Shown: positions 53,910 through 63,377, counted from the first letter of the stretch. The stretch: 64,000 nt of DNA from an uncultured Acidimicrobiia bacterium (GCA_963823505.1 CAWGLY010000008.1:373924-437923); one strand, 5' to 3'. Numbers and translations: made by a program. The notes: generated by a model from the letters alone, not told the origin.

Positions 53910-54500
53910 ATGACCCGTTCGTTCGCCATCACCTACGACTATCTGTGCCCGTTCGCCCGCATCGCAAACGAAGCCGTGGTGGAGGCGTTGGCCGACGGCG
54001 CCGCATGGGACGTCGACTTCCGGCCCTTCTCGCTCGCCCAGTCGCACGTCGAGGAAGGTGAGGCCGCCGTTTGGGATCGACCTGCGGGAGACCCGGGCAG
54101 CAGAGGCGTCGTCGCACTTCAATGGTCGGTGGCGATCAAAGAGCTCTTCCCCGAGCAGTTCCTCGCTTTCCACGTTGCACTGTTCGACGCCCGTCACAGT
54201 CGGGCGGCAGATGTCGACGACGATGCGTTGCTTCGCGAGCTCGCAGCGGGAGCGGGCATCGATGCCGAAACGGTGGCGCGGCGGGTTGCGGAGGGTGCTC
54301 CGATGAAGCAGCTGGCTGCAGAGCACGACGAGTTGGTCGACCGCTGGGAAGTGTTCGGCGTTCCCACGTTCATCGACGGCGACGAGGCCGTCTTCGTCCG
54401 GCTGATGGAGCGGTATCGGCGCAGCGACGTCGAGAAGGTGCTGGACATGCTCGAGTGGACTCGGCTCAACGAGTTCAAGCGGACCCGCATCCCCCGCTGA
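53910..54500 (+). CDS. DsbA-like thioredoxin-fold protein (HCCA isomerase / GST-kappa-like)
   Basis: N-terminal ITYDYLCPFA thioredoxin-fold active-site region. 196 aa. Typical DSBA-domain length. Confidence 0.6.
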   Translation: MTRSFAITYDYLCPFARIANEAVVEALADGAAWDVDFRPFSLAQSHVEEGEAAVWDRPAGDPGSRGVVALQWSVAIKELFPEQFLAFHVALFDARHSRAADVDDDALLRELAAGAGIDAETVARRVAEGAPMKQLAAEHDELVDRWEVFGVPTFIDGDEAVFVRLMERYRRSDVEKVLDMLEWTRLNEFKRTRIPR

Positions 54501-55310: not shown

Positions 55311-57827
55311 TTGCCCATGACACGCACCATCCCCGACACGCCGTCGATCGATGGGCTCGAAGCCAAGTGGCGTGACGCCTGGGAGCGCGACGGCATCTAT
55401 CGCTTCCGGCCGGACGTCGTGCGCAACAGCGTGTACTCGATCGACACTCCGCCACCGACGGTCAGCGGTTCGCTCCACATCGGCCACGTGTTCTCCTACA
55501 CCCACACCGACACCGTTGCCCGCTACAAACGGATGGCAGGCCACGAGGTGTTCTATCCGATGGGCTGGGACGACAACGGCCTTCCGACCGAGCGGCGCGT
55601 GCAGAACTACTACGGCGTCCGCTGCGATCCGGCCCTGCCCCATGACCCGGGTTTTGTGGCTCCCGCAACGCCCTTTGATCCACCGCGGCCGATCAGCCGG
55701 CGCAACTTCGTCGATCTGTGTCTTGGGCTGACCGCCGTCGACGAGCAGGCATTCGAGAATCTGTGGAAGCAACTCGGTCTGTCGATCGACTGGTCCATGA
55801 CCTACACCACCATCGGCGAAGAATCGCGGCGCATCTCCCAGCTCGCCTTCTTGCGCAATCTGGGGCGCGGGGAGGCGTACGTCGCCGATGCGCCGGTGCT
55901 GTGGGACATCGACTTCAGGACCGCCGTTGCCCAGGCTGAGCTCGAAGACCGGGAACGCGCCGGGGCGTATCACCGTATCGCCTTTCACCGCCGCGACGGG
56001 GAGGCGATCTACGTGGAGACCACCCGGCCGGAGTTGATCCCGTCGTGCGTGGCGCTCGTCCATCACCCCGACGACGAGCGGTATGCGGAGATGACCGGCA
56101 CGACGGCCCGGACTCCGCTGTTCGGCGTCGAGGTCCCGGTGCTGTCGCACGAGCTCGCCGAACCGGACAAGGGCACCGGCATCGCAATGATCTGCACCTT
56201 CGGTGACACCACAGACGTCACGTGGTGGCGCGAGCTGGAGCTGCCGTCCCGGGCGGTGATCCAACGGAACGGGCGATTTGTAGAGGACACGCCGGCGTGG
56301 ATCCCCGACGGAACGGCATTCGGGGAACTCGCCGGCAAGACGGTGAACCAGGCGCGGCGCCGTATCGTCGACATGCTGACCGAGAGCGGCGACCTCGACG
56401 GCGAGCCCCGAGTCATCACCCACGCCGTGAAGTTCTATGAGAAGGGCGAGCGGCCCCTCGAAATCGTCTCGAGCCGGCAGTGGTACATCCGCAACGGTGG
56501 CAGAGACGAGCAGCTGCGTGCCCAGCTGCTGGAGCGGGGCTTGGAGCTCGAATGGATTCCCGAGTTCATGCGGGTGCGCTACGAGCACTGGGTGGAGGGG
56601 TTGGCCGGCGACTGGCTGATCTCGCGGCAGCGATACTTCGGGGTGCCGATCCCGCTCTGGTATCCCCTGGATCAGCAGGGCGAGCCGGACTATGCAGCGC
56701 CGATCCCGGCCGATGAGGCGGCCCTCCCCGTGGACCCGGCGAGTGAGCCGGCCCCCGGCTACCGCAACGAGCAGCGTGGGCAGCCCGGCGGGTTTGTTGC
56801 CGATCCCGACGTGATGGACACGTGGGCAACCTCGTCGTTGTCGCCGCTCATCGTCACCGGCTGGGAACGCGATGCTGATCTGTTTGCGCGCACCTACCCG
56901 ATGGATCTGCGACCGCAGTCTCACGACATCATCCGCACCTGGCTCTTCGCCACGCTGACGCGAGCTCACCTCGAGTTGGATGGGCTGCCCTGGTCTCACG
57001 TCGCGATCTCTGGCTGGATCATGGACCCAGACCGCAAGAAGATGTCGAAGTCCAAAGGCAACGCAGTCACCCCGATGGACCTCTTGGACGAGTACGGCTC
57101 CGACGGCGTCCGCTACTGGGCGGCGAGCGGCCGGCCCGGCACCGACACGCTGTTCGACCCGGCTCAGATGAAGGTCGGTCGCCGGCTCGCCATCAAGCTG
57201 CTCAACGCATCCCGGTTCGTGCTCGGGTTCGGCGAGAGTGCCGGGGAGATCACCGAACCGCTGGACCTCTCGATGCTTGCGTCATTGCGCCGGGTGGTGA
57301 CGGAGGCTACTGCGGCCTTCGAGGCCTACGACTACGCCAGGGCGCTCGAGCGCACAGAGGCATCGTTCTGGTCGTGGACCGACGACTACCTCGAGCTGGT
57401 GAAGGTGCGGGCCTACGGCGAAAGCCCCGGAGCGAACTCGGCCCGGTCGGCGCTGGAGCTCTCGCTGTCGGTCTACCTCCGCCTTTTTGCTCCGGTCCTT
57501 CCTTTCGTCACCGAGGAAGTCTGGTCGTGGTGGCGCGACGGTTCGATCCATCGCAGCGCATGGCCAACCGTGGAGGAGCTGCCGGGGATCGGCGATCCGG
57601 GTGTCCTCGAGGCCGTGGCGGAGGTGCTCGGAGAGGTCCGCCGCGCCAAGTCGGAAGCCAAGCGGTCTATGAGGTCGGAGGTCACGGCTGTGTCGATCGC
57701 CGGCAGTGCCGAGCGGCTGGCGGCAGTCCGAGCCGGGGCCGAAGACCTCACGGCCGCCGCAAATGCCGGATCGCTGGAGTTCGTGGACGCGGCCCCTGCG
57801 ATTGTCGTAGAGCTTGCTTCCGAGTGA
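55311..57827 (+). CDS. valS: valine--tRNA ligase (short form lacking C-terminal coiled coil)
   Basis: HIGH (SLHIGHV) and KMSKS motifs. ValS-specific TTRPEL...DERY...KGTG editing region. KLLNASRFVL anticodon-binding region. WLISRQRYFGVPIP. Confidence 0.85.
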   Translation: MPMTRTIPDTPSIDGLEAKWRDAWERDGIYRFRPDVVRNSVYSIDTPPPTVSGSLHIGHVFSYTHTDTVARYKRMAGHEVFYPMGWDDNGLPTERRVQNYYGVRCDPALPHDPGFVAPATPFDPPRPISRRNFVDLCLGLTAVDEQAFENLWKQLGLSIDWSMTYTTIGEESRRISQLAFLRNLGRGEAYVADAPVLWDIDFRTAVAQAELEDRERAGAYHRIAFHRRDGEAIYVETTRPELIPSCVALVHHPDDERYAEMTGTTARTPLFGVEVPVLSHELAEPDKGTGIAMICTFGDTTDVTWWRELELPSRAVIQRNGRFVEDTPAWIPDGTAFGELAGKTVNQARRRIVDMLTESGDLDGEPRVITHAVKFYEKGERPLEIVSSRQWYIRNGGRDEQLRAQLLERGLELEWIPEFMRVRYEHWVEGLAGDWLISRQRYFGVPIPLWYPLDQQGEPDYAAPIPADEAALPVDPASEPAPGYRNEQRGQPGGFVADPDVMDTWATSSLSPLIVTGWERDADLFARTYPMDLRPQSHDIIRTWLFATLTRAHLELDGLPWSHVAISGWIMDPDRKKMSKSKGNAVTPMDLLDEYGSDGVRYWAASGRPGTDTLFDPAQMKVGRRLAIKLLNASRFVLGFGESAGEITEPLDLSMLASLRRVVTEATAAFEAYDYARALERTEASFWSWTDDYLELVKVRAYGESPGANSARSALELSLSVYLRLFAPVLPFVTEEVWSWWRDGSIHRSAWPTVEELPGIGDPGVLEAVAEVLGEVRRAKSEAKRSMRSEVTAVSIAGSAERLAAVRAGAEDLTAAANAGSLEFVDAAPAIVVELASE

Positions 57828-57921
57828 GGTGTTGTGGCGGGGTGCGGGTCGATGGACTTCGCCCCCCAACGCACGGCGTTGCTTCCATCGCGACCCTGAT
57901 CCGCGCATCGCGGCCCAACTA

Positions 57922-58127
57922 GGACACTGCTGGTCAACGTCAGTTCGAGCTCGTGACCGAGGTCGTGACCAGGCACCGTGGCGGACCCGCGAGCCCTCGC
58001 GACGATTTGATCAGCAGTCTCCTGGGACACTGCTGATCAACGTCAGTTCGAGCTCGTGACCGAGGTCGTGACCAGGCACCGTGGCGGACCCGCGAGCCCT
58101 CACGACGATTTGATCAGCAGTCTCCTA
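57922..58127. repeat. two tandem copies of a 103-bp element with 15-bp terminal inverted repeats (MITE/REP-like)
   Basis: Copy 1 at 57922..58024 and copy 2 at 58025..58127 differ at 3 positions. Each copy begins GACACTGCTG(G/A)TCAA and ends TTGATCAGCAGTCTC (revcomp GAGACTGCTGATCAA), giving 14/15 TIR identity. CTAG is present at both outer flanks. Confidence 0.8.
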
Positions 58128-58131
58128 GGGT

Positions 58132-59199
58132 GTGGCGATGACTGAGAGCCCGGCGAACACGCCAGCGCAGGCGACACCGCCCAGCCGGAAGAAGCAGGTG
58201 ATCGCCGGCCTCGTGACGTTGGTCACGCTTGTGATTGTCTTCGGGAGGATCCTGCCGCAGCTCGCCGACTACGGGTCGGCTTGGGAGGCCATCCAGGACA
58301 TGCCGGCGCTTGCGCTCGTCCTGCTGGTCGTGGCGACGATTGGCAACATCATCGTGTACGTCTGGCCATATCAAGCTGCCTTGCCCGGTATCAGCTACGG
58401 CCCGGCATTCGTCGTGCGGCAGACATCGTTCGCCATCAGCAATGGCGTTCCGGCCGGCGGGGCGTTCGGGATCGGCGTGCAATACACCATGCTCGGCGAT
58501 TACGGCTTTGGGGCAGGCCCTGCTGCGGCTGCGATCGGGATCACAAGTGTGTGGAACTCACTGGTCACGTTGGCGCTCCCCGTGCTGGCAGTCATCGGCT
58601 TGGTGATCACAGGCGACCCTCAGGGATGGGTCATCTCGGCCGCAGCGATTGGGCTCGTTGTCGTCGGCGTGATTGTCGGTCTCCTCGTTGTCGTCTTCAG
58701 GAGTGAATCTGCCGCGATTCGCCTTGGGGACTTTGGCGATCGGCTCGTGACGCGGACCGGACGGCTCTTCAAGAAGGACCTGACGCTCAACATCGGCAAC
58801 GCCCTGCTGGATTTCCGGCGGTCGACCATCGACGTTGTGGAGCAACGTGCAGTGGCTATCACCCTGACCAACGTGTTCCAGCAACTCGTCCAGTTCTTCA
58901 TCCTGTTCCTGGCGTTGCGAGGGATCCAGTCGGACGCCGCGATGCAGACGACGCTGGTCGAGACGTTGGTGGCGTACTCCGTTGGTCGGTTGGGGAGTTT
59001 CATCCCGTTGACCCCCGGCGGTCTCGGCACCGTCGATGCGCTGATCACGGCCATCCTCGTCGGATTCGGCGCCGTAGAGTCCGACGCGCTTGCCGCAACC
59101 CTTCTGTGGCGAGCATCCACCTTCTTCCCCCAGATCTTCCTCGGGATCGGAACCTTCCTCTACTGGCGCCACCGCAAGACAAAGTCGCTGGCCGCCTGA
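58132..59199 (+). CDS. UPF0104 / lysylphosphatidylglycerol-synthase-TM-region-like (flippase-like) membrane protein
   Basis: 355 aa with about 8 TM helices. The architecture and conserved Gly/Pro pattern (FIPLTPGGLGTVDA) are typical of PF03706. GTG 58132 or ATG 58138. Confidence 0.7.
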   Translation: MAMTESPANTPAQATPPSRKKQVIAGLVTLVTLVIVFGRILPQLADYGSAWEAIQDMPALALVLLVVATIGNIIVYVWPYQAALPGISYGPAFVVRQTSFAISNGVPAGGAFGIGVQYTMLGDYGFGAGPAAAAIGITSVWNSLVTLALPVLAVIGLVITGDPQGWVISAAAIGLVVVGVIVGLLVVVFRSESAAIRLGDFGDRLVTRTGRLFKKDLTLNIGNALLDFRRSTIDVVEQRAVAITLTNVFQQLVQFFILFLALRGIQSDAAMQTTLVETLVAYSVGRLGSFIPLTPGGLGTVDALITAILVGFGAVESDALAATLLWRASTFFPQIFLGIGTFLYWRHRKTKSLAA

Positions 59200-59309
59200 G
59201 GAGTTGTTCCCCAATCCGTGGACGCCGTCGTCGGCCTTGCGGCGTTCAGGCCGTTCGGGTCGCAGCGAGCTGCAGCGGGCTTGCAGTCGCCGAGTGGCAC
59301 AATGCTGCC

Positions 59310-60008
59310 GTGTTTCCTTTCCTGCCCGGTCCTCTGCTGTTCGACCAGATCGGCGAGACCGATTGTGAGGCGATCGGTGACGGCTGGCTCGCCCAGCCTG
59401 CCAACGCGATCTCGAGCGGCGCCTACGTCCTGTTTGGTGCCTGGATCCTGGTCCACGCGTTCCGCAACCCCGCTGGAGAGCGCGCCACCCAGCTGACCTA
59501 CGGGGCCGTCCTGGCTGCCGTCGGGATCGGGAGCATTGCGTTCCACGGGCCGATGCCTGCGGGGGCACGTCTGCTTCACGACCTGACCATCGCCGCGGTC
59601 TTTGCGCTGATTGCAGCCAGGGGCGTCGGCACTCTGCGGCGGTGGGGGGAGACGAAGGTCCTTGGGCTGTTCGCCGGCATGACGACACTGATCGGTGTTG
59701 CGATGGCCATCAGCCCAGAAGGCGGAATCGCCGTCGCTGCGATCGTCGGTGTAGCTGCGTTGGGACTCGAAATCTACTTGTACCGGTCGGGTCGCCGCCA
59801 GCGTTTCTCCTCCACCCTGGTGCGCTGGCTGGCTGGAATCGTGGCCCTGCTCCTGGCGGGTGCCTTGATCAACGTGCTGGGTCGGACGGGTGGTCCACTC
59901 TGCGACCCGGACAGCGTGTGGCAGGGCCACGCTGCCTGGCACGTACTCACCGCCGCCGCCTTCGGGCTCTACGGCTACCGATCGTTTCTCACCGAGCGGT
60001 CCGTCTGA
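59310..60008 (+). CDS. 7-TM ceramidase-like / PAQR-like putative membrane hydrolase
   Basis: GTG at 59310, in frame inside the supplied 59106..60008 ORF. Candidate metal-site residues are spaced as in alkaline ceramidases: DCE...N.ISS, FHGPMP, HD, GHAAWHVLTAAA (HxxxH). Family assignment is low confidence. Confidence 0.45.
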   Translation: MFPFLPGPLLFDQIGETDCEAIGDGWLAQPANAISSGAYVLFGAWILVHAFRNPAGERATQLTYGAVLAAVGIGSIAFHGPMPAGARLLHDLTIAAVFALIAARGVGTLRRWGETKVLGLFAGMTTLIGVAMAISPEGGIAVAAIVGVAALGLEIYLYRSGRRQRFSSTLVRWLAGIVALLLAGALINVLGRTGGPLCDPDSVWQGHAAWHVLTAAAFGLYGYRSFLTERSV

Positions 60009-60086
60009 TCGGAGCGCCGTGGACGTCCGCACTCGCGCGCTCGGTATGCGACCATGCCAGCTCCTGAGCGTGGTCGAGTGGAGCGC

Positions 60087-61412
60087 ATGACCCAACCGAC
60101 GTCCCATTCTTCGCCACGTCCGCGAGCTTTCCAGCGGCTCATTGCGAGAGGCGCTCGCCTGCTGGCACGCGGCATCTACCGGTCCGTCGAGGTCGACAAT
60201 CCCGAGTCCGGGTGGAGCTGGCACAGCGCCATCCTCGTCGCCAATCACCCAACCGGCTTCTCCGATCCTGCCCTTCTCCTCGGGTTGCTGGAGCGCAGCC
60301 CGCGGTTTCTGGCCAAAGCGACGCTGTGGAACAACGGGGCCGCCGGATGGTTCCTCGATCACCTCGGTGCCATCCCGGTGTATCGCGCCGAGGACGGTTC
60401 GACGGACCGCAACGCCGAGATGTTTCGTGCTGCCTTTGAAGCGCTGCGACAAGGCCATTTGATCGCTCTGTTCCCCGAAGGGGGAGTGAGCGACACTCCC
60501 GCCATCCGCCCGATCAAGACGGGTGCCGCCCGCCTCGCCCTCGGCGCCCAGGCAGCCGGTGTCACGGGCCTACGGGTCGTACCGGTCGGCATCCATTTCG
60601 AGGACAAAGCGGCACTGCGCAGCCGGGCGTTCGTGCAAGTAGGTGACGTGCTCGATCTCGACACGGAGGTGCCGCCGCCTGCGGTTGGTGCCGACTCGAG
60701 AGACCCGGTGGATCGACTGACCGACGAGATCGAGGTGCGGCTGCGGGCGGCTGCTCCCGACTACGACACCGACGAGGAAGCGCGCGATCTTGCATACGCT
60801 GCGGAGATTGCCCTGGGCGAGCCTGGACCAAACCGGGTGTCATTTGCAGACCGGCAGCAGGCGGCCGCCCGGCTGGCACGAGCCGAGCCCGCGGTGCGTT
60901 CGGGCGCTCTCGATGCTGCATATCGCTACCGCGCCGCTGCGCAGCGTGTTGGTGTCGATGACCGTGACGTCTTGCTGGCCCAAGGCGGGGCGAAGCTCCG
61001 TCGCAGGCTGGCCGGGCTGCTGGTGATGCTGATCGTCCTGGCGCCGTTTGCCCTCGTGGGCGTCGTGATGAACATCGTTCCCGTCGGAGGGCTGCTGGTC
61101 GCCATGCGGCACAGCCACGACGCAATGACCGCAGCCACGGTGCGGATGGTGGCAGCCGTGGGTGCGTTCCTGATCGTGTGGCTGGTCTGGGCCGGATTGG
61201 CGTGGAGCGTTTGGGACTGGAGGATGGGTCTGGTGGCGATCATCGCAGCGCCCGTCTACGGCGCCGTCGCCCTCTTCACCATCGACCGAGCCGTCAGCTG
61301 GTGGCGCGACTGGACAGGGCTGCGCAGAGCCGGTCAGGTCGGCGGCAGGCTCGATGCGTTGCTTGCCGAGCGCGCCACGCTGGTCTCGACCCTCGAGGCG
61401 GCGATGGTATGA
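60087..61412 (+). CDS. 1-acyl-sn-glycerol-3-phosphate acyltransferase-family protein (PlsC-like) with extra C-terminal 4-TM domain
   Basis: Acyltransferase motif I NHPTGFSDP (HX4D). Motif III FPEGG. The C-terminal about 150 aa are hydrophobic. Confidence 0.75.
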   Translation: MTQPTSHSSPRPRAFQRLIARGARLLARGIYRSVEVDNPESGWSWHSAILVANHPTGFSDPALLLGLLERSPRFLAKATLWNNGAAGWFLDHLGAIPVYRAEDGSTDRNAEMFRAAFEALRQGHLIALFPEGGVSDTPAIRPIKTGAARLALGAQAAGVTGLRVVPVGIHFEDKAALRSRAFVQVGDVLDLDTEVPPPAVGADSRDPVDRLTDEIEVRLRAAAPDYDTDEEARDLAYAAEIALGEPGPNRVSFADRQQAAARLARAEPAVRSGALDAAYRYRAAAQRVGVDDRDVLLAQGGAKLRRRLAGLLVMLIVLAPFALVGVVMNIVPVGGLLVAMRHSHDAMTAATVRMVAAVGAFLIVWLVWAGLAWSVWDWRMGLVAIIAAPVYGAVALFTIDRAVSWWRDWTGLRRAGQVGGRLDALLAERATLVSTLEAAMV

Positions 61413-61657
61413 CCGGACCGTGGGCATGGATCGTGCTCGTGCTTGCCCTTGTCCCCGTAGTGGCGATCATGATCTGGGCGCTTGCCGACTTGGCGCGCCG
61501 CCCGGATGTCGCCGCTCGCCGCAAGGCCCTGTGGATGATTGTGGTTGTGGCGCTCCCGTTGGTGGGTGCCGTCCTCTACCTGGTATTCCGCCCGGCCCGC
61601 CGCGCCGACCTTCGCGGTTTTGGAGGCCCGAACCGCCCGCCCGGCGGTCGGGGGTGA
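61409..61657 (+). CDS. PLDc_N-domain small membrane protein (PF13396-like)
   Basis: ATG overlaps the PlsC stop (ATGA). 82 aa with two TM helices and a WALADLARRPDV...KALWMIVVVALPLVGAVLYLVF pattern. Confidence 0.6.
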   Translation: MTGPWAWIVLVLALVPVVAIMIWALADLARRPDVAARRKALWMIVVVALPLVGAVLYLVFRPARRADLRGFGGPNRPPGGRG

Positions 61658-61853
61658 CGGGGTAGACCCATCAACGGTGCAATCCAATGACGATGGTCGT
61701 AGGTGTGTTCGGTGTGGCGGAGTGGCCGGAGTGAGCCGGCGGGGGTGGTCCAAGTGGTAGTCCTCCCAACCTTCGACGACGGCAGAGAGGTAGTAGCCGG
61801 CCGAGTCTCGGAAGCGGAGGCCCCCCGATCGACAGCATCACCGAGAGCGGTGT

Positions 61854-62264
61854 TCATCTGAGGTTGAGACGCTCTGTCGGTTGGCCTGTGAGTCCGGCGA
61901 TGAGCTCGAAGTCCTTGTCGTGGTGTATCACGGTGAGTTGGGCCAGCTCTGCGGTGGCGGCGATGAGCAGATCTGGAATCGATGGGGCTCGATGCTCACC
62001 GCGATTGGCAAGGGCATGCTGCACTTGCACGGCCCGGTCTTCGATCCGTGGTGTCAGGTACTCGACCGGCATCGACGCCAAGGGGGGTTCCGAGAAACTG
62101 TTGTGCAGGTCTTGGGCTGAGCGTGCCGAGAAGCCGATCTCGAGGCGGGTCAGGGTCGAGATGCGCACCAAGCCTCGTTCGATACGAGCCGCCCAATGGG
62201 CAGCGTCGGAGCTCGTGGCGAGACGGACCAGGGCCGACTTGTCGATCAGCCAGCCGTCGGTCAC
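61854..62264 (-). CDS. vapC: PIN-domain ribonuclease toxin VapC
   Basis: 136 aa. PIN acidic residues (LIDKSAL, conserved D near the C-terminus in HHDKDFE). Confidence 0.8.
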
Positions 62265-62494
62265 GACCAGGCTCGACCCATCACGTCGGGATCGTCGAGG
62301 TCGCCGAAACGCTCCGCAAGGAGTTGCAGCGACCGCACGGTCACCTCACCGGTGTCCGATTGGCTCTCGCGGGTCAATGCTCGCCTGAGATACTCGGTCC
62401 GGGACAGACCGGCCCGTTGCGCTTTGGAATCGATCGCTGCGACGACATCGTCAGGGACTTCTCGTATCAGGATGTCAGCCATCCATACCTCCAT
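62261..62494 (-). CDS. vapB: VapB-type antitoxin (ribbon-helix-helix / FitA-like)
   Basis: 77 aa with [36 protein letters not shown], an RHH motif. Overlaps the vapC start by 4 nt. Confidence 0.65.
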
Positions 62495-62773: not shown

Positions 62774-63004
62774 GTGACGTTCAACAGGATCAGTGTCGAC
62801 CCAGATCGGATGGGAGGAGTGCCGTGTGTGCGCGACCTCCGCTTTCCCGTCGCCACCGTTGTTGCCATGGTCGCCGACGGAATGAGCGTTGACGAGATCC
62901 TCGCCGAGCACCCTGACCTCGAGGCTGAGGATATCGCCGAGTGCTTGCGCTATGCGGCACTCGCTGTCCAAGAGCGTGAGCTTCCGCTTCGTCAGCCGGC
63001 GTGA
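62774..63004 (+). CDS. DUF433-domain protein (antitoxin-like partner of DUF5615)
   Basis: 76 aa. DUF433 core (GGVPCVRDLRFPVATVVAMVADGMSVDEILAEHPDLEAEDIAECLRYA). Confidence 0.65.
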   Translation: MTFNRISVDPDRMGGVPCVRDLRFPVATVVAMVADGMSVDEILAEHPDLEAEDIAECLRYAALAVQERELPLRQPA

Positions 63005-63377
63005 GGTTCCTGCTCGACGAGAACCAGTCGCCGCGTCTTGCAGATCACCTGGTGGAGGCAGGGCACGACGTCATCCATGTCCGGGACCTGCGACATGCGG
63101 ACGTCGCCCGATGCCAACATCCTCGGAGGTGGCTCGGGAGGATGATCGGGTTGTCGTGTCCGCAGACGTCGACTTCGGGGAACTGTTGGCGCGATCGAAT
63201 GCGGACCGACCGTCGATCCTGCTGTTTCGACGGCAGCAGCAACGACGAGCCCGCCAGCTCGCTGCATTGATCCTCGCCAACCTCGATGACGTGGCTGAGG
63301 ATCTGGAGTCCGGGGCAGTGGTGGTCTTCGACGCCGACCGCATCCGGGTTCGACGACTCCCGTTCCAGCCGGACTGA
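63001..63377 (+). pseudogene. DUF5615-family (PIN-like) toxin partner, apparently frameshifted
   Basis: The N-terminal half (MRFLLDENQSPRLADHLVEAGHDVIHVRDLRHADVA) is in the frame of ORF 63001..63270. The C-terminal half (EVAREDDRVVVSADVDFGELL...) is in the -1 frame, that of ORF 62889..63377. The switch lies near 63100-63120. The GTG start overlaps the DUF433 stop. Confidence 0.55.

Follow-up and report, generated by a model that had tools for sequence, protein, structure and literature searches.

A recurrent actinobacterial hydrolase, flippase and acyltransferase gene set with a possible role in trans-bilayer editing of membrane-lipid acyl chains

A putative membrane hydrolase, a flippase-like protein and a glycerolipid-type acyltransferase recur as a set across Actinobacteria, encoded as an operon or as a fused protein. 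We describe the set from an uncultured Acidimicrobiia bacterium, where four co-directional plus-strand genes (g1–g4) occupy positions 58138–61657 of the 64,000-nt stretch of DNA that was analyzed (the window). Tentatively, and with somewhat less than even confidence, we propose that g1–g4 form one operon encoding a membrane-lipid acyl-chain editing module whose catalytic centers lie on opposite membrane faces. Our literature search found no earlier description of an operon of this type. The four genes are as follows.

g1, 58138..59199, + strand: UPF0104/MprF-flippase-like/PplT polytopic membrane protein, 353 aa, ATG start
g2, 59310..60008, + strand: seven-TM alkaline-ceramidase-family (CREST) putative Zn hydrolase, 232 aa, GTG start
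g3, 60087..61412, + strand: GPAT/LPLAT-superfamily acyltransferase, 441 aa, ATG start at 60087
g4, 61409..61657, + strand: PLDc_N two-TM mini-protein, 82 aa, ATGA overlap with g3

An earlier note, made from the sequence alone, had reported four consecutive plus-strand genes for lipid-related membrane proteins here; all of the ORFs are present where it placed them, and the four-gene observation is confirmed. Other possible starts are GTG 58132 for g1 and ATG 60054 for g3. The 300-aa ORF from 59106 that contains g2 runs into g1, and its start was refined to GTG 59310. The refined starts of g1–g4 match those called independently in the public annotation of the 537,819-bp source contig, and valS lies immediately upstream of the cluster. 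The note had proposed HMM assignment as a check, and the matches to PF03706, PF05875, PF01553 and PF13396 (g1–g4, respectively) all exceed the Pfam cut-offs.

The ceramidase-like call for g2 was borne out. The protein belongs to PF05875 (2.4e-10, 40.7 bits, cut-off 32.5) and not to PF03006; it has a 7-TM CREST fold nearest to ACER, with ACER3 as its best structural match, and nearly all g2 homologues among the matches listed carry a precomputed PF05875 match. The description of g2 as His-rich did not survive, as it contains only five His residues, four of them at invariant metal-site positions. Across 30 homologues, S75, H79, H90, D91, H207, and H211 do not vary, and the metal-site positions correspond to S77, H81, D92, H217, and H221 of ACER3. 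By sequence, the Zn-site pattern is complete, with S-x3-H in TM2, (H)D in TM3 and H-x3-H in TM7. Cys19 and Cys198, also invariant, are equivalent in sequence position to the ACER-specific disulfide C21–C196 that joins the N-terminal loop to the end of TM6. With an invariant catalytic set and Cys pair, and ACER3 as the best structural match, g2 looks competent as a hydrolase.

The Ca2+ site is a different matter. In ACERs, D19-W-C-E-x-N24 and A-E33-F are strictly conserved; g2 keeps D18, C19, and E20, has no counterpart of W20 or N24, and carries an invariant Gln29 in place of E33, an alteration that would count against the editing model. ACER1–3 and yeast Ypc1/Ydc1 share with g2 their family (PF05875, CREST), fold, Zn-site pattern, and Cys pair, whereas g2 is bacterial, about 35 residues shorter, altered at the Ca2+ site, and equipped with an extra invariant His (H90). 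Its gene also differs in setting, lying beside or fused to those for a glycerolipid acyltransferase and a flippase, with no sphingolipid context found among recurrent neighbors.

These features bear on whether g2 could be a ceramidase, or a CoA-independent ceramide synthase working in reverse, in an operon that edits sphingolipids. The bona fide PF05875 membership and the ACER3 match would favor such a function, and some Actinobacteria are reported to have bacterial ceramide-synthesis genes, according to the passage of PMC12134224 that cites Stankeviciute et al. 2022. We nevertheless consider it quite improbable: g2 is altered at the Ca2+ site that ACERs need for activity, its fused or coupled partner is an O-acyltransferase of the glycerolipid type, and other CREST enzymes, such as PGAP3, hydrolyze glycerolipid esters. 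Moreover, the 25 commonest families listed at positions ±1 and ±2 across 80 loci include no Spt-like aminotransferase (PF00155), no ceramide synthase, and no reductase. The earlier suggestion of a sphingolipid-like product accordingly has no positive evidence behind it.

The charge distribution of g2 is strongly biased, with a K+R value of 11.8 on loops 1–2, 3–4, and 5–6 plus the C-terminus, versus 3.1 on the opposite side. From the positive-inside rule, we predict an N-out/C-in topology, under which the active site would lie in the outer leaflet, with the Cys pair outside. The C-terminus would then be inside, where natural fusions attach the acyltransferase domain, which needs cytoplasmic acyl donors. 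Against an outward-facing g2, ACER3 is depicted as N-in and with the active site on its inner side. A precedent for the predicted arrangement is PGAP3, a CREST protein that acts as a lumen-facing GPI phospholipase A2 in fatty-acid remodeling (PMC13562381). GPI remodeling by PGAP3/Per1 combines a CREST hydrolase having an extracytoplasmic (lumenal) site and N-out/C-in topology with acyl removal followed by re-acylation. It differs from the g1–g4 system in being eukaryotic, with enzymes neither fused nor encoded in an operon, and the CREST branch closest to g2 is ACER, not Per1.

By its motifs and modeled fold, g3 belongs to the GPAT/AGPAT (LPLAT) superfamily. The PF01553 match (1.3e-19, 70.8 bits, cut-off 23) is limited to residues 45–180, and all four acyltransferase motifs are present: NHPTGFSD (I), IPVYRAED (II), FPEGG (III), and VVPVG (IV). 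In 37 homologues, no variation is seen at H54, D60, F129, P130, G132, P166, or G168. The earlier note had assigned an HX4D motif to this protein, which is wrong; motif I is H-X5-D, and a one-residue gap is required to align Thermotoga maritima PlsC. The catalytic domain is followed by a helical linker and a C-terminal membrane domain, and the AF2 model of the protein has a pLDDT of 89.7. Structure comparison matched the N-domain to PlsC (5kym) and GPAT1 (8e4y), and the C-domain gave no PDB match. The membrane C-domain itself had been correctly recognized, but its count of four TM helices is better given as three to four, because there are three hydrophobic segments (317–352, 357–387, and 389–411 in 452-aa numbering), one of them 36 aa long.

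Several specific identities were considered for g3 and rejected. It is not PlsC (TIGR00530, 48.5 bits versus a cut-off of 102.95; HX5D instead of the canonical HX4D), it scores below the equivalog cut-off for OlsA, and it is not Aas (44.6, 17.7, and 12.8 bits versus cut-offs of 1221, 1349, and 886; no AMP-binding domain). Automated JGI names assign K13507 (GPAT/DHAPAT) to g3-type proteins. Among the opisthokont acyltransferases that have been compared, HX5D is reported as a variant specific to fungal GPATs, which acylate glycerol-3-phosphate de novo. Matched against the published consensus, g3 shows a motif pattern resembling that of the fungal enzymes Sct1/Gpt2 (K13507), with HX5D and Phe at +4, an IPVxRxxD-like motif II, FPEGG (consensus FPEGG(S)xD), (V/I)(V/I)PVG, and membrane helices after the catalytic domain. 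They differ in size, g3 being about half as large, and in motif II–III spacing (about 25 residues in g3 versus about 110). Since its motif set resembles that of de novo fungal GPATs, a lysolipid acyltransferase is not the only role open to g3, and this counts against the editing model.

The overlap between g3 and g4 described earlier is present (ATG 61409–61411, TGA 61410–61412), and g4 is, to judge from this ATGA arrangement, translationally coupled to g3. The protein matches PF13396 (8e-10, 38.9 bits, cut-off 23.3). Cardiolipin synthase was rejected as an identity, as the PLDc_N hairpin is present without HKD catalytic domains; at 82 aa, with two hydrophobic segments and no HKD domain, g4 is a stand-alone PLDc_N protein. 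In at least 15 related loci, the acyltransferase gene is followed by one for a PLDc_N homologue, and PLDc_N is fused to the acyltransferase N-terminus in two proteins (P0167 and P0169). None of the four ceramidase-family::acyltransferase fusion loci examined has a PLDc_N gene, which points to an accessory rather than a core part for g4.

The first gene of the cluster encodes a UPF0104 protein (PF03706, 7e-20, 72.1 bits, cut-off 33.4; TIGR00374, 61.7 bits, cut-off 43.2). MprF contains the only characterized UPF0104 flippase domain, and this domain transports lipid in the inner-to-outer direction; for stand-alone UPF0104/PplT "flippases", no substrate has yet been defined. The flippase domain is common to MprF and g1, and the C-terminal aminoacyl-PG synthase domain of MprF is missing from the 353-aa g1, which was rejected as MprF (NF033480, 50.6 bits versus the 600 needed). 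It also scores far below the model cut-off for the GlcN-PG flippase equivalog. Like g1, Escherichia coli YbhN (PplT, with clsB) and the Pseudomonas aeruginosa GlcN-PG flippase are encoded beside lipid enzymes. The partners differ from those of MprF and these two proteins, as g1 is accompanied by a CREST hydrolase and an HX5D acyltransferase.

Membership of g1 in the MprF flippase-domain family, together with the valS gene immediately upstream, could be read as an aminoacyl-phospholipid pathway, perhaps one using the adjacent valyl-tRNA synthetase, and the earlier note had raised an amino-acylated lipid. This idea is largely refuted and in our view very improbable. Besides the failure of g1 to qualify as MprF, an aminoacyl-PG synthase domain is found neither in the window cluster nor in any of the recurrent neighbor families listed, and valS is a neighbor in 0 of 80 related loci.

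Evidence for a common function comes from gene linkage. The synteny search that the note had suggested was carried out on 80 species-level genomes having a g2 homologue, and both the acyltransferase type and the UPF0104 gene recur beside these homologues. A g3-type acyltransferase lies directly downstream and co-directional in 23 of the 80, adjoins the g2 homologue in any orientation in 25, and lies within 4 kb in 28; a UPF0104 gene adjoins in 10. PF01553 is by far the commonest +1 neighbor family (20/74), and PF03706 is the commonest at −1 (9/79). The exact four-gene order is kept in Ilumatobacteraceae (L022, L031, L040, and L067) at a ceramidase-family protein identity of only 35–39%. Fusions of PF05875 and PF01553 form more than 100 distinct clusters at 90% identity, 640–700 aa in length and from several independent assemblies. 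In P0236, the one fusion sequence that was read, the catalytic motifs of both enzymes are intact, and each of the four fusion contexts read has a UPF0104 gene overlapping the fusion gene at its start or stop. This gene arrangement is far beyond chance. A functional link among g1–g4, and with it the earlier idea of a single lipid pathway, is strongly backed by the conserved synteny together with the ceramidase-family::acyltransferase and PLDc_N::acyltransferase fusions.

At the family level, the g2–g3 partnership is facultative, since most homologues of either do not adjoin the other: approximately 65% of g2 homologues have no adjoining acyltransferase, and a g2-type gene is adjacent or fused to only 6 of 80 acyltransferase homologues sampled. 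This counts against the editing model. Seen from the acyltransferase, however, Abhydrolase_9, a different membrane hydrolase, is paired with the family in 11 of 80 loci, making hydrolase plus re-acylase a recurrent theme.

The large number of g3-family genes without g2 would fit a housekeeping glycerol-3-phosphate/lysophosphatidate acyltransferase of Acidimicrobiia that g2 tunes by sensing or regulating the state of the membrane in a PAQR/AdipoR-like way, any hydrolysis yielding a signal rather than bulk turnover. Both the g3 motifs and JGI's automated names agree with GPAT/DHAPAT, and AdipoR and bacterial PAQR homologues, which are CREST relatives, are tied to membrane homeostasis (PMC9017321; PMC13562381). 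We regard such a role as improbable. The invariance of the full catalytic set and the ACER-specific Cys pair in g2 would argue for real catalysis, the tight coupling with a flippase is left unexplained, and, as two g3 paralogues occur in related genomes (L003 and L004), the housekeeping role may belong to a copy other than the g2-linked one.

In the acyl-editing model that we favor, g2 would use its outer-leaflet active site to cleave a fatty acyl chain, through an ester or amide, from a membrane lipid. The lipid or lyso-lipid would then be moved between leaflets by g1 and re-acylated from an activated acyl donor by g3, whose catalytic domain would face the cytoplasm, with g4 as an accessory membrane subunit of g3. 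The net result would be trans-bilayer deacylation and re-acylation of glycerolipids, as in Lands-type remodeling or lysolipid repair. It is possible, though rather less probable than the module itself, that the set is a self-contained trans-bilayer machine, often a single polypeptide, in which an outward-facing ACER-type hydrolase and an inward-facing acyltransferase are connected through the membrane and assisted by a dedicated PplT flippase. A bolder variant, by analogy with PGAP3 and GPI, would have it remodel the acyl chains of phosphatidylinositol-anchored surface glycolipids or lipoproteins.

In Gram-negative bacteria, LplT flips lysophospholipids, and Aas then re-acylates them (PMC11416262). 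A lipid flippase is thus encoded and works with a PF01553 acyltransferase, the logic that we propose for g1 and g3, and outer-leaflet lysolipid is repaired on the cytoplasmic face, as we propose here. The components differ: LplT is an MFS transporter and g1 a UPF0104/PplT protein, and g3, which falls far below the Aas cut-offs, is of the HX5D type with its own membrane domain. Carrying its own hydrolase, the g1–g4 module could, unlike LplT-Aas, make the lysolipid itself. An AMP-binding acyl-activating enzyme is part of the LplT-Aas system; in loci related to g1–g4 it is a separate gene, with an AMP-binding long-chain ligase joining L002–L010 and L083. Related loci also hold a second operon (acyltransferase, PLDc_N, ligase) corresponding to a split version of E. 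coli Aas. Neither an acyl-activating ligase nor an MFS partner was found in the 64,000-nt window, and the lack of a ligase there counts against the editing model.

The same linkage, fusion, and topology evidence could also describe a biosynthetic route running from inner to outer leaflet, in which g3 builds a particular glycerolipid at the cytoplasmic face, g1 exports it in the way that MprF exports Lys-PG, and g2 trims one acyl chain on the outer side to leave a mature lyso- or mono-acyl surface lipid instead of a recycled one. The inner-to-outer direction of MprF may fit this route as well as salvage and to that extent counts against editing; in P. aeruginosa, a UPF0104 flippase is encoded with lipid-modifying enzymes that make the surface lipid GlcN-PG (PMC12713373), and the HX5D motifs of g3 resemble those of de novo GPATs. 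We judge the biosynthetic route unlikely. No head-group-modifying enzyme (glycosyltransferase or aminoacyl transferase) is conserved among the recurrent neighbor families listed, fatty-acid recycling is indicated by the recurrence of a ligase that activates fatty acids and by the Aas-like second operon, and release of a fatty acid outside the cell would be wasteful. The earlier note had left open whether the lipid is made or edited; editing fits the gene anatomy better than making.

Little is known about acyl-chain editing and repair of lipids already in the bacterial membrane, especially for the outer leaflet and for bacteria other than Gram-negatives that have LplT-Aas or PlaF. Bacterial alkaline-ceramidase relatives have likewise lacked a functional context ever since the definition of the CREST superfamily by authors who found gene association uninformative for them. 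The proposed operon and the abundant hydrolase/acyltransferase fusions with an overlapping flippase gene tie acyl editing, bacterial ACER relatives, and UPF0104 flippases into one testable hypothesis, for which the natural fusions offer compact constructs suited to biochemistry and cryo-EM. In the HX5D acyltransferases, the fungal-GPAT motif variant would have bacterial counterparts. If the self-contained machine is real, it would amount to the first Lands-type or lysolipid-repair cycle to be defined in Gram-positive bacteria, and bacterial ACER-like CREST proteins and a stand-alone UPF0104 flippase would each gain a first physiological role.

The plus-strand interval 58132-61657 of the window, which has a GC content of about 65% and whose nearest relatives are Acidimicrobiia MAGs, contains four ORFs, each with a public gene call on the 537,819-bp source contig:

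ATG 58138, plus strand: g1, UPF0104/PplT flippase-like protein, 353 aa
GTG 59310, plus strand: g2, alkaline-ceramidase-family (CREST) hydrolase, 232 aa
ATG 60087, plus strand: g3, acyltransferase, 441 aa
ATG 61409, plus strand: g4, PLDc_N mini-protein, 82 aa

The four family assignments proposed in the earlier note hold, as every ORF scores above its curated Pfam cut-off: g1 matches PF03706 (LPG_synthase_TM, 7e-20), g2 PF05875 (Ceramidase, 2.4e-10, 40.7 bits against a cut-off of 32.5), g3 PF01553 (Acyltransferase, 1.3e-19, over residues 45-180 of 452 only), and g4 PF13396 (PLDc_N, 8e-10). In NCBIfam, g1 scores above the cut-off of the generic flippase-like model TIGR00374 and falls far below the equivalog cut-offs for MprF and the GlcN-PG flippase. 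The earlier suggestion of an aminoacyl lipid is essentially refuted. The intergenic gaps are 110, 78, and -4 nt, the last being the previously claimed ATGA overlap between g3 and g4. Scans for promoters and terminators yielded no signal stronger than those in shuffled controls, so we infer the operon structure from spacing and synteny only. An Rfam search of 57700-62000 returned no RNA family.

The spacer between valS and g1 is filled by a 103-bp tandem duplication in perfect register (window 57922-58126; 2.0 copies, 98% identical). Each unit is delimited by inverted termini of approximately 16 bp (GGACACTGCTGATCAA ... TTGATCAGCAGTCTCC), and the predicted RNA fold of the region (-106.8 kcal/mol, z = -4.8) is much better than shuffles. 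This repeat, which has no Rfam match and no further copy within the window, may represent a palindromic element of the MITE/REP type or a regulatory structure ahead of the operon. Two toxin-antitoxin-like pairs follow immediately after the operon, a PIN (VapC) gene with a ribbon-helix-helix antitoxin (61854-62494, minus strand, 4-nt overlap) and a DUF433 gene with a short DUF5615/PIN_10-like ORF (62774-63270, plus strand). The latter ORF may be truncated because its Pfam match covers only profile positions 1-33 of 110. Neither pair recurs beside g2 homologues.

We examined gene neighborhoods by using one genome per GTDB species, which yielded more than 483 g2 relatives, and retained 80 loci, mostly from Acidimicrobiia but also from Micrococcales, Streptosporangiales, Frankiales, Nanopelagicales, and Nitriliruptoria. 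Neighbors were counted with tblastn and custom HMMs on stop-to-stop ORFs and were also taken from a fixed-anchor gene caller. In 23/80 loci, the gene directly downstream of the g2 homologue and co-directional with it encodes a g3-type acyltransferase complete with the C-terminal domain; the count rises to 25/80 for adjacency in any orientation and to 28/80 within 4 kb. UPF0104 genes adjoin the g2 homologue in 10/80 loci, PLDc_N follows the acyltransferase gene in at least 15 of 80, an AMP-binding ligase of about 600 aa occurs in 7-9 of 80, and Abhydrolase_9 occurs in 5/80. A Pfam scan of the called neighbors gave PF01553 as the commonest +1 family (20/74) and PF03706 as the commonest -1 family (9/79), with the remaining families nowhere near these counts. 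The gene order of the window is repeated exactly in four Ilumatobacteraceae loci (L022, L031, L040, and L067; g2 identity 35-39%). ValS and the remaining window neighbors show essentially no recurrence at the 80 loci, and we rejected valS, SpoU, DsbA, and Lon (upstream) and VapBC (downstream) as partners; the sole exception is a single weak SpoU match about 3 kb from the g2 homologue at L020.

Two other contexts were observed. In close relatives, an HX5D acyltransferase paralogue, PLDc_N, and the approximately 600-aa AMP-binding ligase form a second operon, which lies near the ceramidase-like gene or converges on it (L002 3442-6926, L003 6400-10040, L004 10381-13957, and L006 5409-10733; related set L002-L006). 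Its make-up resembles a split form of E. coli Aas. The 64-kb window lacks this operon and contains no ligase and no second acyltransferase paralogue. Another ceramidase-like subclade (L011, L012, L015, L025, L029, L030, L042, and L076) has a PQQ beta-propeller protein and a protein of about 390 aa without family assignment upstream, and ChsH2-type OB/zinc-ribbon proteins and thiolase-like genes downstream; an acyltransferase is absent. The ceramidase-like family has thus been drawn into two or more neighborhoods.

In a reciprocal set of 80 metagenome loci centered on g3 homologues (29-54% identity), a g2-type gene is present within 3 kb in only 6/80, one of them fused, indicating that the acyltransferase family is broader than its g2-linked subset. 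UPF0104 was found at 5/80 of these loci, PLDc_N at 6/80, and Abhydrolase_9 at 11/80. Abhydrolase_9 (PF10081/PF15420), a membrane-anchored alpha/beta hydrolase without assigned function, adjoins an HX5D acyltransferase at L088, L090-L092, L098, L100, L101, L109, L111, L112, and L129, mostly convergently and separated by about 11-120 nt. Further occurrences are at L001, L004, L024, L037, and L080, including several ceramidase-like loci. This constitutes a second hydrolase-acyltransferase pairing, so the membrane hydrolases that pair with the g3-type family are of two unrelated kinds.

Searches with g3 also retrieved fusion proteins, namely P0167 and P0169, in which PLDc_N is fused N-terminally to the acyltransferase, and P0236, a 677-aa protein with PF05875 followed by PF01553. 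With P0236 as the query, 343 matches were obtained at E ≤ 1e-20, and fusions of 640-700 aa made up more than 100 distinct clusters. The source assemblies are from NCBI, ENA, JGI, and Logan, and some of the contigs are 0.2-2.4 Mb long. The catalytic motifs are intact in P0236, the single fusion sequence inspected. In 4/4 contexts the fusion gene overlaps with a UPF0104 gene, which lies upstream in the P0236 contig and L082 and downstream in L081 and L083/L084; an AMP-binding ligase is close by in 2/4. On the synteny and fusion evidence, we rejected chance adjacency of g1-g4. In one fusion-locus clade, a TM7S3/TM198-like (PF13886) multi-pass protein is encoded directly upstream and co-directionally (L081 4244-4975, L083 4345-4989, and L084 363-1007). 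A sulfotransferase-family gene (PF13469/PF00685; 50375-51232, minus strand) adjoins lon in the window, and fusion loci L081 and L083 have sulfatase and FGE-sulfatase genes on their flanks; this is probably a coincidence.

The g2 family is sizeable, with 431 clusters (50% identity) at an E-value cut-off of 1e-30 and 1931 at a cut-off of 1e-10. Invariant residues in a 30-sequence alignment are D18, C19, E20, Q29, P30, N32, G74, S75, H79, G80, H90, D91, R192, C198, Q205, H207, W210, and H211. A single-sequence search of the PDB gave no match for g2; a profile search gave ACER3 weakly (E 0.032), with GS..FH and Q.H..WH aligned. The AF2 model is of high confidence, with a pLDDT of 89.5 and a pTM of 0.86. 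The ACER3 zinc ligands (H81, H217, and H221) and the residues bonded to the water (S77 and D92) (PMC6303388) each have an invariant counterpart in the g2 family, and C19 and C198 correspond to the ACER-specific C21-C196 disulfide (PMC6303388). With this complete predicted zinc site and these conserved counterparts, g2 is, by sequence, a true alkaline-ceramidase-family member of a divergent bacterial branch. The ACER Ca2+ site, D19-W-C-E-x-N24 / A-E33-F (PMC6303388), is only partly kept, as g2 lacks the Trp and the Asn and has an invariant Gln in place of E33. That the module serves ceramide metabolism proper appears very unlikely.

Across the g2 family, mean K+R is 11.8 on loops 1-2, 3-4, and 5-6 plus the C-terminus and 3.1 on the N-terminus plus loops 2-3, 4-5, and 6-7. 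This strong charge bias predicts an N-out/C-in topology, which would put the active-site residues together with C19 and C198 at the outer leaflet. Such a placement has been validated in the case of ACER2, and for PGAP3 it is a proposal (PMC13562381). Given this topology, a cytoplasmic acyltransferase domain would require the hydrolase to come first, as it does in the fusions. The Cys pair (Cys19, 59364-59366; Cys198, 59901-59903), invariant across the bacterial family, is predicted to be extracellular, where a disulfide is expected, unlike that of ACER3, which faces the cytoplasm and puzzled its authors (PMC6303388). A DsbA-like gene (53910-54500) lies 4.8 kb upstream and does not recur in related loci.

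The acyltransferase g3 is the ACYLTRANSFERASE of the gene set. Its motif I, described in the earlier note as HX4D, is in fact HX5D (NHPTGFSD): the HMMER alignment to T. maritima PlsC takes a one-residue gap there, and all 37 homologues aligned keep H54 and D60. Together with the remaining motifs (IPVYRAED, FPEGGVSD, and VVPVG), this pattern matches the published consensus of the fungal GPATs Sct1/Gpt2, the sole HX5D carriers among the opisthokont acyltransferases compared (PMC7613133; PMC4207751). Homologues often carry the automated JGI name 'glycerol-3-phosphate O-acyltransferase/dihydroxyacetone phosphate acyltransferase'. In NCBIfam, g3 misses the equivalog cut-offs for PlsC, Aas, and OlsA by a wide margin. 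In the AF2 model (pLDDT 89.7), the N-domain fold matches PlsC (5kym) and human GPAT1 (8e4y), and no PDB structure matches the helical linker and the three long C-terminal helices. Hydrophobic segments span residues 317-352, 357-387, and 389-411.

The catalytic motifs are intact in the window proteins, the hydrolase, acyltransferase, and flippase show conserved linkage and fusion, and the charge-bias topology predicts two catalytic centers on opposite leaflets. We tentatively propose that the module may function in a cycle in which a lipid would be deacylated at the outer leaflet, flipped across the membrane, and re-acylated on the cytoplasmic side. An inner-to-outer biosynthetic route is an unlikely alternative use of these components, and a housekeeping GPAT with a regulatory partner seems quite unlikely. 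Functional analogues of the proposed deacylation-reacylation cycle are LplT-Aas (PMC11416262) and PGAP3-dependent GPI remodeling (PMC13562381). Within the literature library searched, queries by Pfam accession and by CREST terms turned up no published description of the module, and those by Pfam accession no UPF0104-ceramidase-acyltransferase partnership. The CREST paper describes bacterial ACER-like groups for which no functional association was found, and the many UPF0104 architectures in the portion of the PplT preprint examined do not include a partnership with g2/g3-type genes. Every part belongs to a known family and the proposed logic has precedents, and the natural fusions make the module directly testable.
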